Virus record (IMG/VR): IMGVR_UViG_3300025357_000014
Coordinates: 1 to 57,624 of that record
Direction: 5' to 3' (one strand)
Origin: a virus
Taxonomy: Duplodnaviria; Caudoviricetes
Length of the DNA: 57,624 nucleotides
Part shown: one piece after another, positions 4,009 through 44,473 of the stretch
How positions within the stretch are numbered: position 1 is the first letter of the stretch
How the letters are laid out: every line of letters starts with the position of its first letter
Made by a program: the position numbers and the translations under genes
The notes under the pieces: model-generated
The model's input: only the letters and a program-made list of their open reading frames with translations
The model's database searches: none
Told to the model about the DNA's origin: nothing

Positions 4009-5493
4009 ATGAGTGACGAACTAATGGATCCAATTATTCCACTAGCTGATGTTGTGTCTGCATTTCGTGATGACATAACTACAACAACTAAGTGGCAAGT
4101 GCAAGCAACAGCAGGTGAGTTCGGTGCTGGTGTTGACTTTGCTGCTGGGATTCTAGCTGTCCCCCTCTCGGGTGACAGTTATTCTCAGCAAGTACAGTTA
4201 CGCAAGCTAGTTGAACTACGTTGTTCTCCTACTGATCCAGCTTTATACAAACAAGTAGCTACCTTTTATCAGGAACAAGGTATCACTGAGAGTGTTCTCC
4301 GTGCTGCCGAAGCTGCTCGTATCTCAGCTATCACTGAGAAGTTTGCTGTACAGTTTGGTTTGAAATCAGAACCAGATGGATCAGAGAAGAATCGTGGCAA
4401 GAATCTAGCATCTGCTAAGTCTGCTGCTGCATGGGACCAGGCTGTTGAGTTCACACTTAGACATCATGGTACGAAAGCCTTTGACTCGTTCGCGAGTGGT
4501 GTTCGTGCCGTTAATCCTGAGTGGAGCAAGTCATTGCGTGCTCTCAACAAGCGACTCACTAGTACACTAGCTGGTTCAGCACGTGGTCTCGGTGACACTA
4601 GTCCAATGCAATTTGGCCATGGTGTTACTGGGCCTGCTGGTTTTGCCAACTCTGTGTATGCTGCTAGTGTTGTACGTGACTACTTGTCAGATGGATATAA
4701 AGCTCCTGATGACATGCGAAGAATGCGTCAAGCACTAGAAGAGAAGCGTGCTGAAAACTATGGTGATGTTGATCCTAAAGATTTATCTGAGCGAGGTAAA
4801 TTAACTCCGCAAGAGATGAGTGTTGACGACGATATTCCTGATGGTTTTGAGTTTAGTGACGACTCTGACTTTGGTAAGCTACGTGTTTGTGACACGTTGC
4901 CACTAACAGTTGAGGTTCCAGGTTACATGCATCGTAAACGTAAAGCAATGACATCTGGTCGTCGCATTGCGTATCCATCTCGTATGCTTACTGACCCACA
5001 ACGTCGTGTGTTCGGCACTAAGGTTCGTGTTAAGGGTGGTATCGTAGTCATTGACATCTCAGGTTCTATGAGTCTGAGTCAAGATGACATCGAAGCCATC
5101 GTTAACAACGCACCTGCTGCTGTTATCATTGCGTACAGTGACTGTGGCGATGACCCTGAGCCTAACGCTTGGGTCTTAGCTAATCGTGGCTGGCGTGTTA
5201 GGGAAGTAGGTAACATCGGTGGTCATAACAATGGTGTTGACGGACCAGCTCTTACATGGGCTATTCGTCATCGTCATCGTAATGAGGAAATCATCTGGGT
5301 CACTGACGGTCACGTTACTGGCATCAAAGGTGGTTCCAATGCACAACTAGCTGTTGAGTGTGCTAAGTTAGTTAAGAAACACAAAATCATTATGATTCCT
5401 AGTGTTGAAGAGGCTGTTAAGCAGTTCAAATCTGGTAGGTTTATTAATAAACCTCACGGTTATGTACGCGAAGCCTTGCTTGGCAAACTTTAA
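4009..5493 (+). CDS. vWA-domain protein, partner of the AAA+ ATPase
   Basis: MIDAS motif IDISGSMS and downstream VTDG; adjacent to the MoxR-like ATPase. Confidence 0.82.
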   Translation: MSDELMDPIIPLADVVSAFRDDITTTTKWQVQATAGEFGAGVDFAAGILAVPLSGDSYSQQVQLRKLVELRCSPTDPALYKQVATFYQEQGITESVLRAAEAARISAITEKFAVQFGLKSEPDGSEKNRGKNLASAKSAAAWDQAVEFTLRHHGTKAFDSFASGVRAVNPEWSKSLRALNKRLTSTLAGSARGLGDTSPMQFGHGVTGPAGFANSVYAASVVRDYLSDGYKAPDDMRRMRQALEEKRAENYGDVDPKDLSERGKLTPQEMSVDDDIPDGFEFSDDSDFGKLRVCDTLPLTVEVPGYMHRKRKAMTSGRRIAYPSRMLTDPQRRVFGTKVRVKGGIVVIDISGSMSLSQDDIEAIVNNAPAAVIIAYSDCGDDPEPNAWVLANRGWRVREVGNIGGHNNGVDGPALTWAIRHRHRNEEIIWVTDGHVTGIKGGSNAQLAVECAKLVKKHKIIMIPSVEEAVKQFKSGRFINKPHGYVREALLGKL

Positions 5494-6792: not shown

Positions 6793-6820
6793 TGTCCTGG
6801 GTATGACATTAAAGTGCCCA
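6793..6820 (+). ncRNA. H-type pseudoknot motif, copy 2
   Basis: TGTC-CTGGGTAT-GACA-TTAAAG-TGCCCA. Confidence 0.75.
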
Positions 6821-6855: not shown

Positions 6856-7143
6856 ATGCGTATAGAAGGAAGACACAACGATGATAAGACTGAGATTCAA
6901 ATCATTGTTAAAATAGAGGGTGAAGGAGAATTTGAAGCCTTTACTCATTTCTTTCAAGAAATGATTCAGAACATGGCTAGTGCTGCGGATGCTCTTCTCA
7001 TTGATCCAATCAATGAAAAAGTATACAAAGGCGAAGACGTGACTGATGAAATGGTTCTGGATGCAATGAAAGATTTTGCTATTCAGAAAGCAACTGAAGC
7101 CAACCGTGATTCGGATCCAAGTATGCGTATCAATTTCATCTAA
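6856..7143 (+). CDS. hypothetical protein
   Basis: 95-aa ORF with an ACCCAAATAGAAAGGCAGTAAG leader. Confidence 0.75.
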   Translation: MRIEGRHNDDKTEIQIIVKIEGEGEFEAFTHFFQEMIQNMASAADALLIDPINEKVYKGEDVTDEMVLDAMKDFAIQKATEANRDSDPSMRINFI

Positions 7144-7156
7144 AGAAAGGAATAAC

Positions 7157-7540
7157 ATGTCAAGAAGAATATCATGGCGTAAATCGCCTGATGCTGATAT
7201 CTGGCGTGCTAAAGTTCCACAACATTACAAAGTTGAATGTAGACTTGTAATACATGCTGGTGTAGTTAACAGTTCAGTAATGAATAAGAATGCTAGACTA
7301 GAAGTACAAGTACCAACAACAGGTAGGAATTATAAAACCGTAATAATTGTAGAATTTTATAGCAGTTGGTGGGCCAAAGAGTATGTAGATTCTTTACTTC
7401 AAGTAATGTATTTTTATGATTTTGATAGTAAGGATCATGCATTTCAATGGTTCATTGATATTTTAAGTAAAGTACAAAAAATAGATCAACCTGAAACATC
7501 AGAAGGTAGTTGGACTAGTCTAACTGGTTGGTCTAGATAA
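7157..7540 (+). CDS. hypothetical protein
   Basis: Start moved to ATG 7157 after GAAAGGA (MSRRISWRK...). Confidence 0.7.
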   Translation: MSRRISWRKSPDADIWRAKVPQHYKVECRLVIHAGVVNSSVMNKNARLEVQVPTTGRNYKTVIIVEFYSSWWAKEYVDSLLQVMYFYDFDSKDHAFQWFIDILSKVQKIDQPETSEGSWTSLTGWSR

Positions 7541-7546
7541 TAAAAA

Positions 7547-7604
7547 CAGAAAGCCCGGGAGGGCTCTTGGTGGAGTTGACCGTCCCCAACTGATGAAGAG
7601 GTCA
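7547..7604 (+). ncRNA. type II hammerhead ribozyme (predicted cleavage after C7566)
   Basis: GAAA 7549-7552; stem III GCCC-GGGA-GGGC; CUC cleavage triplet; stem I TTGG(T)GGA/TCCCCAA; CTGATGA 7590-7596; loop I TGACC pairs with 3' GGTCA. Stem II is vestigial. Confidence 0.7.
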
Positions 7605-7629
7605 TAACCAAAAGTAAGAAAGGAAACAT

Positions 7630-8298
7630 ATGTCTAAGGACATTTTGTGGATTGCTATGCGCGATGGTAAAGGCTGGGCTTCCAGTCGTACTCGTGACAT
7701 GGTAGACTTAGCCTTTACGGTTAGTAAGTATGACAAGAAAAACGGTGGATCGTTAGTTGTCATTCGTAAACCTAATCGTGATGATGATCCAAAGTCGCGT
7801 GCGACTGTGGTGATTGGCATGGTCTACTATGACTCAGTATCTGAAGCTAAGGCTGCAGTTAAAGCTGCTGTTGACAATGCTAACATGAGTAGTTCAAATA
7901 AGGAGAGTGCTCGCACTACACTATTAGAACAGATGTTAATAACGTCTAACACCAATGCTAATGCAATTATTGTTATTGGTCATAAGGTAAGATCACAAGG
8001 TCATTACAGTTCAACTACTGTTATGAATAGTGTTAATACTACAGTTGAAAGCACAATGCAGGAGGAAGTTGAAGCTGAAATAGAGCGTAGACTAGAAGCT
8101 GCACCAGATGCTATGCAACAATGGTTAGACATGACTAAAGATCTTACTGAGACTTTTAGCATGACCAAAGCTGTAGCAGATGTACAAGCAGTAGTTGAGG
8201 TTGCCTTTGACCCTAGCACATGGCAAGAAGGTCAGCCTTACCCATCAGAGTACATGCTGGTGGGTGGTCGTCTCATGAAGATGGAATGGCCTAAGTAG
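7630..8298 (+). CDS. hypothetical protein
   Basis: 222-aa ORF with an AACCAAAAGTAAGAAAGGA leader. Confidence 0.8.
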   Translation: MSKDILWIAMRDGKGWASSRTRDMVDLAFTVSKYDKKNGGSLVVIRKPNRDDDPKSRATVVIGMVYYDSVSEAKAAVKAAVDNANMSSSNKESARTTLLEQMLITSNTNANAIIVIGHKVRSQGHYSSTTVMNSVNTTVESTMQEEVEAEIERRLEAAPDAMQQWLDMTKDLTETFSMTKAVADVQAVVEVAFDPSTWQEGQPYPSEYMLVGGRLMKMEWPK

Positions 8299-8307
8299 TA
8301 TCGTAGT

Positions 8308-8336
8308 ATCACCTGGGTATGTGATTAAACTGCCCA
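8308..8336 (+). ncRNA. H-type pseudoknot motif, copy 3
   Basis: ATCAC-CTGGGTAT-GTGAT-TAAAC-TGCCCA. Confidence 0.75.
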
Positions 8337-8365
8337 TTCAAACTAAAATAAGTAAGGAATATATA

Positions 8366-8761
8366 ATGAAAACATATTTTATCAAAGCTGGCACCGATGT
8401 TGATATTGATGTTATTCCATGTGATCAAATAAACTCATATGATTTCATCAAAGAAAGCATAGGTGGTGGTACATTTGATTGTATTGCTTTACCTAGTTTA
8501 GGTATAGACATCTGGATTGATGATGATGGTAAGTTAGTTGAGGATCCTAAAATAAATCTGCTTGGTACTGCACTCTGGATGAAAGAGTACGGTCCAACTG
8601 ATACAATTATGGGAAACATCGTTATTACTGGTGGTGTTGATGATGATGGTAATACTATTGGCATGACTGAGGAAAAGGGTAAAGAAATAATTGCCTTAGC
8701 TAAAGTATTTGTTGATGCACTTACCAATCAAATAATGGATGAAATTATACTAGGAAAATAA
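8366..8761 (+). CDS. DUF3846-like protein
   Basis: IGGG.FDCI...IWIDDDGKL...N...T.L...DTIMGNIVITG..D.DG.T pattern; start moved to ATG 8366 after TAAGGA. Confidence 0.7.
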   Translation: MKTYFIKAGTDVDIDVIPCDQINSYDFIKESIGGGTFDCIALPSLGIDIWIDDDGKLVEDPKINLLGTALWMKEYGPTDTIMGNIVITGGVDDDGNTIGMTEEKGKEIIALAKVFVDALTNQIMDEIILGK

Positions 8762-8768
8762 TAAAGCA

Positions 8769-8816
8769 GCCCTAGTCTGGTGATGAAGTAAGCTAGTTCA
8801 ATTCTAGCTTAGGGCG
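8769..8816 (+). ncRNA. tRNA-like element 2 (acceptor + T arm, no anticodon arm)
   Basis: 7-bp GCCCTAG/TTAGGGC stacked on 5-bp GCTAG-TTCAATT-CTAGC; 16-nt connector containing TGGTGATGAAGTA. Confidence 0.7.
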
Positions 8817-8865
8817 CTCCCAAGTAGGGAATGTAGTATAACCAAAAACAATAAGGAGTAAGCAC

Positions 8866-9414: not shown

Positions 9415-9447
9415 CATCTAACAAGGTTGCATTTGGGTAATGCATCA

Positions 9448-9498
9448 GTCCCAGCCAGTCGGTGGTGAAGTATGGTGGTTCGACTCCACCTTGGGACG
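9448..9498 (+). ncRNA. tRNA-like element 3 (acceptor + T arm, no anticodon arm)
   Basis: 7-bp GTCCCAG/TTGGGAC, T arm GGTGG-TTCGACT-CCACC, connector containing GGTGGTGAAGTA; followed by the same 17-mer GCTCCCAAGTAGGGAAT as element 2. Confidence 0.72.
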
Positions 9499-9539
9499 CT
9501 CCCAAGTAGGGAATACATAAAACAAGTAAGGAGAATAAC

Positions 9540-9950
9540 ATGGGTGACCGTGGACATGTAGAGATTATCAGTGAGGGAGATCCAACACTGTATTACTACA
9601 CACACTGGGGTGCTTCAGGTTTACCAACAGATGTTGCTGATGCTTTGCATCGTGGCAAAGGACGTTGGGATGACAGTGAGTATCTCAATCGTATCATCTT
9701 CTCAGAAATGATTAAGGATTCTGTTCTATCAGATACTGGGTATGGTATTGGTTTCCACCAGCATGGTGATGTATGGCGTATTGTAACAATAGATCACGTC
9801 AACAAAACTGCTGGTATTAAAGAAATCAACTACGATAAAGTAGATTGGTCTAACTACAATGAAGATGATGTAGTATGGGATTGGAAATTAGAACCAGTAC
9901 CATTTGAAGTGTTTGTTTATCTTAATAGTTTAGTTACAGCAAAGGAATAA
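9540..9950 (+). CDS. conserved phage hypothetical protein
   Basis: MGDRGHV...YYYTHWGA...RWDDSEYLNRIIF; TAAGGAG SD. Confidence 0.75.
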   Translation: MGDRGHVEIISEGDPTLYYYTHWGASGLPTDVADALHRGKGRWDDSEYLNRIIFSEMIKDSVLSDTGYGIGFHQHGDVWRIVTIDHVNKTAGIKEINYDKVDWSNYNEDDVVWDWKLEPVPFEVFVYLNSLVTAKE

Positions 9951-44400: not shown

Positions 44401-44473
44401 TGCCCCAGGCAAGACTCGAACTTGCAACCTGCGGGTTAGAACTCCGATGCTCTATCCGTTGAGCTACTAGGGC
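44401..44473 (-). tRNA. tRNA-Arg(TCT)
   Basis: GCCCTAG-TA-GCTC AACGGATA GAGC-A-TCGGA GTTCTAA CCCGC-AGGTT-GCAAG TTCGAGT CTTGC-CTGGGGC-A; A20 Arg identity element; no encoded CCA; two anticodon-stem mismatches. Confidence 0.85.

Follow-up and report, generated by a model that had tools for sequence, protein, structure and literature searches.

The window analysed here is the whole of the 57,624-nucleotide (nt) viral record IMGVR_UViG_3300025357_000014 (Duplodnaviria; Caudoviricetes), a linear sequence of 57.6 kb with an estimated completeness of about 40%. Our subject is a short element on its + strand, a predicted type II hammerhead ribozyme that sits in an 89-nt intergenic gap between an upstream stop codon ending at 7540 and the start, at 7630, of a gene for a 222-amino-acid protein. 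All of the genes around the hammerhead element lie on the + strand. Its parts are given below from 5' to 3' together with the flanking genes, with hammerhead numbering where it applies; names such as L004 and L111 denote related contigs.

7076-7540 (+): upstream gene; stop codon TAA at 7538-7540, 6 nt before ACA
7546-7548 (+): ACA, positions 11.3 to 11.1 (5' strand of stem II in relatives); only C7547 is paired, with G7598
7549-7551 (+): core G12 A13 A14; GA..A is kept in 20/20 distinct copies, four of them with an inserted U (GAUAA)
7552-7565 (+): stem III, made of A15.1-U16.1 (A7552-U7565) and GCCC/GGGC, with the GNRA loop GGGA at 7557-7560
7566-7567 (+): predicted cleavage site, between C17 (7566) and U1.1 (7567), placed from hammerhead numbering
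7567-7589 (+): stem I, UUGG-U-GG with CCCCAA, and a 10-nt loop I; 7567-7573 pairs with 7584-7589 in six pairs, with U7571 bulged
7577-7581 (+): pseudoknot strand in loop I, UGACC; five Watson-Crick pairs with 7600-7604
7590-7596 (+): core C3 to A9, CUGAUGA, the consensus core of the class
7597-7599 (+): AGA, positions 10.1 to 10.3; identical in L004 and L111, and GAC, GAU or GGC in relatives
7600-7604 (+): pseudoknot strand in the 3' tail, GGUCA
7605-7629 (+): remainder of the 5' untranslated region (UTR), with the Shine-Dalgarno region AAAGGAAA at 7619-7626
7630-8298 (+): downstream gene, 222 amino acids, no functional assignment

The full core in type II order, the GNRA-capped stem III and the five-pair pseudoknot described in the initial annotation are all present, each in its place. 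The element has the C3-A9 core, G12 to A14, the A15.1-U16.1 pair, a residue other than G at position 17 and a pseudoknot of at least 4 base pairs (bp), all of which characterize type II hammerheads, and its stems I and III, both capped with loops, follow the type II order and are backed by covariation. What it lacks is a stem II of at least two pairs beginning with G10.1-C11.1. The remnant of that stem consists of A7597 opposite A7548 (positions 10.1/11.1), then the sole Watson-Crick pair, G7598-C7547, and then A7599 opposite A7546. The ACA strand aligns with GUC, AUC or GCC in relatives, and is identical in L004 and L111. A more distal stem II was considered and rejected: GGUU at 7527-7530 can be matched with AACC at 7607-7610 in the window, and GUAA with UUAC in L004, and the two candidates differ in position and spacing and show no in-register covariation.

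Cleavage after C7566 would create a 5' end 63 nt ahead of the AUG at 7630, a distance that had been given before and that the sequence confirms. Hammerhead cleavage is established for the class to leave a 2',3'-cyclic phosphate and a 5'-OH, according to the available text of a 2019 review (PMC6765202), and the predicted products here would be an upstream fragment carrying the cyclic phosphate and a downstream fragment carrying the 5'-OH. In each of the window, L004 and L111, the AGA at 7597-7599 is also a complement of the UCU across the cleavage site (7565-7567), an alternative pairing that could represent an inactive conformation. The minimum-free-energy fold of 7540-7632 has a z-score of -1.19; it was computed with a program that cannot draw pseudoknots, and the pseudoknot strands appear in it as a plain hairpin competing with stem I.

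The window motif alone is suggestive but weak evidence, and is not decisive. A descriptor of the layout that ignores stem II matches once in the window, and the same descriptor matches 18 of 300 Markov shuffles and 111 of 2000 shuffled windows (5.6%). Adding a pseudoknot of at least 5 bp leaves 13 matches among the 2000 shuffles, and 4 remain when stem III must also reach at least 5 bp. We nevertheless conclude that the motif is not a product of chance, because it is conserved and covaries in relatives.

To compare the element with its relatives, we used a covariance model, R1, built from four hammerheads of other contigs only, with the window excluded. Run with filters off over both strands of the whole window, R1 placed its best match at 7545-7607, with 27.0 bits and an E-value (E) of about 2e-5; the runner-up scored 11.2 bits. 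A pattern common to the window and L011 was then used to seek further members; of the 8 viral contigs that it matched, the full type II layout was present in 5, among them three new ones (L016, L020 and L021). The same pattern matched 72 contigs among prokaryote genomes, none of which (0/72) had the layout, so that no prophage copies were found in this set. R1 itself found two further copies in L011, as well as 24 matches, 12 of them distinct, on contigs reached via another gene of the block.

Twenty distinct copies were aligned under guidance of the model, so that the stems, being fitted to R1, are favoured in the following values. In this alignment 94.1% of cells were paired, compared with 69.7% in shuffles (a level reached in 0/500), and 15 of the 19 pairs changed on both sides (again 0/500 shuffles). 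The covariation score was 0.648, against at most 0.077 when partners were slid. Among the modelled pairs, all four of stem III and all six of stem I covary, with 97% and 100% of cells paired, respectively. The pseudoknot lies outside R1 and covaries nonetheless, three of its six pairs having changed on both sides. An alignment of eight rows gave the same covariation picture.

On this comparison, we regard the identity of the window element as settled. Judged from these alignments, the element is a member, by descent, of a type II hammerhead family of phages in which loop I and the 3' tail form a pseudoknot, a result that supports the type II identity put forward in the initial annotation. The family, as mapped by its copies, fills the gaps between stop codon and Shine-Dalgarno region in early-gene blocks of an uncultured phage group. 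All family copies lie on the coding strand; their starts are within a few bases of the upstream stop codon, and their ends leave 9-23 nt to the following start codon.

Several copies depart from the consensus core. Three hammerheads in L011 (948-1024, 1413-1478 and 2566-2631) flank consecutive genes, and all three have U15.1-A16.1, a variant that is weakly active according to the available text of Perreault et al. 2011 (PMC3088659); in one of the three, positions 10.1/11.1 are U-U as well. Among L101, L102, L104 and L109 we observed GAUAA four times, UUGAUAA (a U3-A8 swap) once and CCGAUGA (C at position 4) three times, and in several copies of the phage group A9 is followed by an extra U. GAAA with an inserted U, the U3-A8 swap and U15.1-A16.1 are among the core variants that the same text describes and in part tests.

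The purine-rich form of the stem II remnant, ACA facing AGA, has been kept over a range of divergence. In relatives whose 222-amino-acid protein is 95% and 87% identical to that of the window, the whole intergenic region is unchanged. The L004 element is identical to that of the window at 58 of 59 positions, with the sole change, GGGA to GUGA, still giving a GNRA loop, and this in diverged surroundings: the downstream protein is 55% identical, the DNA of its gene 64%, the rest of the UTR matches at 21 of 26 positions, the upstream flank is unrelated, and the upstream gene is a different one. The window, L002 and L004 each have all 11 core letters, the A15.1-U16.1 pair and C17 unaltered. In L111, where the neighbouring protein is only 28% identical, ACA, GAAA, AGA and the pseudoknot are all retained; stem III shows a compensatory change from GCCC/GGGC to GUCC/GGAC, and stem I has changed too, such that the bulged U of the window gains a partner. 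ACA/AGA is thus unchanged in three lineages (the window group, L004 and L111), and the UGACC/GGUCA pseudoknot is identical in 6/6 positional orthologues. A pattern search for more ACA/AGA copies in viral contigs gave 81 matches, with the core present only in the window's own relatives and on the L111 contig.

Other relatives point to the direction of change. The same-junction hammerheads of L101 (2306-2372) and L102 (2672-2735) have a three-pair stem II, GAC/GUC and GAU/AUC, respectively. In L011 (31% identity) the stems and the pseudoknot are written in other letters that still pair; GAA and CUGAUGA are kept, stem II is GAC/GUC, and an extra U follows A9. Because L101 and L102 share the pseudoknot and yet have a 3-bp stem II, the ACA/AGA form of the window is derived. 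It is not fresh decay, since L111 keeps the form, the core and the pseudoknot with compensatory changes in its stems.

What decay looks like can be seen at the orthologous junction of L008 (820-880). Stems I and III and the same pseudoknot are kept there, with compensatory changes in stem I, but the core has decayed, reading CUAA for GAAA and GAUAUAAUAA for CUGAUGAAGA, with at least six core letters changed. From its sequence, the L008 element may be a ribozyme that is now dead, or its fold may serve a separate purpose. Since a core that is not needed decays, as in L008, the intact core of the window implies that constraint on it has been retained.

We favour, with a probability of about 0.65, the reading that the element is a type II hammerhead acting as a self-cleaving processing site, with cleavage predicted from its sequence. 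We infer that the stem-II-poor form still cleaves, and the order of folding and the effects on the messages are likewise put forward as a proposal. As the polycistronic + strand transcript emerges, stems III and I would fold, and the 3' tail GGUCA would then pair with UGACC in loop I. The pseudoknot would stand in for stem II and the loop contacts, keeping the CUGAUGA and GAA strands positioned for activity, and the RNA would cut itself after C7566. The upstream message would be left ending in the GNRA-capped stem III hairpin with its cyclic phosphate, and the message for the 222-amino-acid protein would begin with a 5'-OH inside the compact fold of stem I and pseudoknot, 63 nt before its AUG. 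On general grounds, a 5'-OH buried in this way should shield the message from nucleases that sense the 5' end. The likely purpose would be to uncouple the message of the 222-amino-acid gene from that of its neighbour, allowing separate stability and translation.

A precedent for such a form exists. In the available text of Perreault et al. (PMC3088659), a type II hammerhead whose stem II has a single pair cleaves fast (observed rate constant, kobs, above 1.2 per min) in a pseudoknot-dependent manner, and its rate falls when that stem is lengthened; judged from the text and the legend of Figure 4 there, it resembles the window element in having a minimal stem II, with activity carried by the pseudoknot. 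The background statement of the initial annotation, that a pseudoknot and a short stem II are frequent in such hammerheads, agrees with this source. Type II pseudoknot hammerheads as described in that text (and in RF02276) share with the window element the order GAA, stem III, cleavage site, stem I and CUGANGA, capped stems I and III with an open stem II, and a pseudoknot in which loop I pairs over at least 4 bp with the nucleotides just after stem II. They also share its setting: hammerheads are reported to lie between phage genes and to flank prophage genes, and Perreault et al. propose that they process polycistronic transcripts by cutting them. The available part of the 2019 review still treats the role of hammerheads in bacteria and phages as unproven (PMC6765202).

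A number of observations weigh against this reading. Across the 20 distinct copies, positions 10.1/11.1 are C-G in 17 and U-U in one, and A-A occurs in the window type only; by the available text of PMC3088659, this is the best-conserved pair of the class after 15.1/16.1. That text also reports that U-U is tolerated there and is more active than any other mismatch at these positions, so that A-A should be worse than U-U. The initial annotation had called the A-A unusual, which holds insofar as it is the sole case among the 20 copies; the wider rarity of the arrangement is reduced by the one-pair stem II and the U-U already published in the same work. Our literature search on 10.1/11.1 mismatches returned nothing relevant beyond PMC3088659 and PMC6765202. 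The pseudoknot of the window has five pairs, compared with six in the published one-pair-stem-II ribozyme, whose activity is reported to fall about 20-fold when its pseudoknot is cut to four pairs (PMC3088659, available text). The window element differs from that ribozyme also in that its single pair, at 10.2/11.2, lies between two A-A oppositions and is kept in three lineages. The L111 core carries an extra A (CUGAAUGA), the L111 element scores only 9.8 bits with R1 and is missed at E up to 0.1, and an insertion after A6 gives low activity in the same published work, as far as its available text goes. Further, the persistence of the L008 scaffold without its core suggests that the scaffold may have a separate use, and the near-identity of the window and L004 elements could reflect a recent transfer of the cassette and not long selection, although L111 argues against recent transfer as the sole cause.

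Rfam searches gave no hammerhead family, either for the whole window at the gathering score and at E up to 10 or for 7450-7700 at E up to 10. The RF02276 Hammerhead_II model (gathering 37 bits), which the initial annotation had proposed as a check, gave no match at the gathering score or at E up to 10 even when run singly, and with the RF03152 RAGATH-1-hammerhead model (gathering 56.3 bits) the window stayed without a match at E up to 10. Control searches on the canonical relatives L016, L020, L021 and L011, which have the type II layout with a 3-bp stem II, were likewise without a match. Since the same searches miss textbook type II relatives, we gave these negatives no weight, and the proposed check turned out to be uninformative.

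Among the other explanations, one fares best, although we consider it unlikely: the element would be a hammerhead in ancestry whose cleavage has been lost or is too slow to be of consequence, retained for its structure within the message. The upstream gene would then have stem III as its 3' hairpin, and stem I with the pseudoknot would form a folded 5' UTR affecting the translation or decay of the 222-amino-acid message; a protein might bind this fold, as happens with autoregulated genes of phages. The reduction of stem II to one pair between A-A mismatches, where L101 (2306) and L102 (2672) have three pairs, would fit such a history, as would the inserted core residue of L111 and L008, in which stems I and III and the pseudoknot persist, with compensation in stem I, after loss of the core. 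Yet L008, where the core is evidently dispensable, has at least six of its letters changed, whereas the window, L002 and L004 have 11 of 11 core letters together with A15.1-U16.1 and C17, and a purely structural role leaves the retention of CUGAUGA and GAA unexplained.

A structural role finds a further lead in the only local Rfam match, a weak likeness of 7572-7632 to the DUF2815 RNA motif (RF03084; 15.1 bits, E 3.2), a pseudoknot-like leader. Like that motif, the window element forms a leader upstream of the ribosome-binding site of a phage gene, and the similarity extends over loop I, CCCC-A-CUGA and the Shine-Dalgarno region. DUF2815 proteins are phage single-strand DNA-binding proteins, according to the available text of PMC5686142. 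The score, however, is far under the gathering value of 41.2 bits, the stem of the model is deleted in the alignment, and the 222-amino-acid protein has no DUF2815 match in Pfam, so the element does not fall within this motif and the likeness serves as a lead only.

It is very improbable that stem III is an intrinsic terminator, or a simple hairpin that ends transcription, with the hammerhead letters around it coincidental. GCCC-GGGA-GGGC does make a strong small hairpin right after the stop codon, and a terminator-like site is flagged on the opposite strand (7550-7567, -), where the complement of stem III is followed by CTGTTTTTAT. On the + strand, though, the hairpin is followed by UCUUGG, with no U run, and went unflagged in the scan; the minus-strand T run is absent from L004; and the conserved core, stem I and the covarying pseudoknot would be left unexplained. 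Finally, the notion of a chance descriptor match without function, to which the 5.6% of shuffled windows with a stem-II-free layout and the lack of any Rfam match lend some colour, is already refuted by the comparative data, namely 27 bits with R1 against 11 for the runner-up, an L004 element kept at 58/59 amid diverged flanks, the compensatory changes of L111, 20 covarying family members, and pattern matches in prokaryotes of which 0/72 have the layout.

The reading as a self-cleaving processing site draws further support from what occupies gene junctions in the window and in related phages. Two other kinds of recurrent element were found near the hammerhead in the window:

8765-8833 (+): tRNA-like minihelix and hairpin, at the next-but-one junction; acceptor stem of 7 bp, T arm of 5 bp; 87.1 bits with model R2
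9444-9515 (+): second tRNA-like minihelix and hairpin, upstream of the gene at 9540; acceptor stem of 7 bp, T arm of 5 bp; 77.6 bits with model R2
8313-8336 (+): small hairpin-plus-pseudoknot element, between the 222-amino-acid gene and a DUF3846 gene
6797-6820 (+): second hairpin-plus-pseudoknot copy, upstream of the gene at 6856

The minihelix resembles a transfer RNA (tRNA) reduced to its acceptor stem and T arm. Its T loop is of the UUCGAUU type, about 16 nt take the place of both the D arm and the anticodon arm, and there is usually a small hairpin after it. Among 26 distinct copies, pairing extends to 98.1% of cells and covariation to 11 of the 12 pairs. ARAGORN called no tRNA gene at six minihelix loci, the Rfam tRNA model scores the minihelix at only 22.6 bits, and 8765-8833 has a weak Rfam match on the opposite strand. 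Copies elsewhere include L004 2665-2733 and 3341-3412, L007 54-122 and 1339-1407, L009 1405-1473, 3144-3212 and 3675-3743, and L011 2087-2150, among others. An ordinary tRNA gene lies at 44401-44473 (-; 59.1 bits) in the window, and its first seven bases equal the acceptor strand of the minihelix at 8769.

The hairpin-plus-pseudoknot element consists of a 4-bp hairpin with the loop CUGGGUAU, a linker WUAAAS and then UGCCCA, which is able to pair with the loop as an H-type pseudoknot. It is seen also in L004 (about 2220), L007 (about 890), L011 (about 212), L107, L109 and L111. In 8 copies, 3 of the 4 hairpin pairs covary and the pseudoknot letters are invariant. The whole-window Rfam search at E up to 10 returned no family for it.

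At the junction before the 222-amino-acid gene, comparison of 11 lineages gave a hammerhead in six (the window group, L004, L111, L011, L101 and L102), the core-less scaffold in one (L008) and a tRNA-like element in four (L007, L009, L107 and L109). The junction before the gene at 9540 has a tRNA-like element in nine lineages and a hammerhead in L011. A minihelix of acceptor stem and T arm is the minimal substrate of ribonuclease P (RNase P). The alternation suggests, from the genomic arrangement, that the hammerhead and the tRNA-like element both mark a site at which the transcript is cut, which would be their simplest common denominator; we base the proposed transcript-processing role of the hammerhead on the presence of the tRNA-like minihelix at the same junction in relatives. 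Should RNase P indeed cut the tRNA-like element, the swap would argue that the job of the junction is simply to have the transcript cut.

In organelles, tRNA punctuation and the so-called t-elements are a known parallel, in which tRNA-shaped structures between genes serve as cutting signals. The minihelices in gene junctions of these phages are alike in form and position. The organelle elements are handled by host tRNA-processing enzymes, whereas the minihelices here reside in phage genomes and alternate with a self-cutting RNA, and their cutting by RNase P is a hypothesis. Alternation of hammerheads with tRNA-like elements in phages was not found in the literature searched, which gave nothing relevant beyond PMC3088659 and PMC6765202; the supplements of PMC3088659 (alignments, Figures S4-S8) may hold similar variants.

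A bolder extension of the same data, which we regard as doubtful, would treat ACA/AGA as a distinct, maintained hammerhead class in which a fixed purine-rich motif takes the place of stem II and the pseudoknot is the sole scaffold, with activity perhaps gated by the AGA/UCU pairing or by a partner molecule. It would also treat the three recurrent elements as interchangeable 'punctuation cassettes' at phage junctions: the self-cutting hammerhead, the minihelix cut by host tRNA enzymes and the small hairpin-pseudoknot. If this were true, exchange of cassettes at orthologous junctions would amount to direct comparative evidence that phage hammerheads have the processing role long suspected of them.

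Intergenic type II hammerheads in phages, the one-pair stem II and U-U at 10.1/11.1 are already known, as the available text of PMC3088659 makes clear, and the window element departs from the class so described in its A-A at 10.1/11.1, its single G-C pair in stem II and its lack of a match to the RF02276 model, which misses its canonical relatives too. The novelty is modest but genuine: an ACA/AGA form poor in stem II has been maintained across three lineages, hammerhead and tRNA-like element alternate at orthologous junctions, a third recurrent junction element has no Rfam match, and Rfam models miss a phage hammerhead subfamily, with the consequence that such elements are under-annotated. 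A natural hammerhead with a long-kept perfect core and no real stem II tests how far a pseudoknot alone can carry the fold. Likewise, a single junction filled by a hammerhead, a tRNA-shaped element or a core-decayed scaffold across one phage group offers a handle on the unproven role of these ribozymes.

The 222-amino-acid protein gave no family in Pfam and PHROG searches, and each of its 15 homologues is unnamed or 'hypothetical'; its metagenomic homologues gave access to the related loci. Its AlphaFold2 model has a mean predicted local distance difference test (pLDDT) score of 68.7 and no Foldseek match in the PDB at E up to 0.001; the best match in a wide VIA-align search, PsiB (3nct_A; Z 5.8, root-mean-square deviation 3.4, 91 aligned), is below the level that the tool treats as meaningful. 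BLASTN of 7000-8400 against GenBank phage records gave no match. The stretch AAGTAAGAAAGGAA upstream of the 222-amino-acid gene is kept in most relatives, and the true start of the upstream gene is probably near 7157, as judged against its relatives. Further upstream, a 494-amino-acid protein encoded at 4009-5493 (+) gave no match in a Pfam search and corresponds to phrog_33218; its stretch VVIDISGSMS resembles, by eye, the metal-site motif of von Willebrand A domains.

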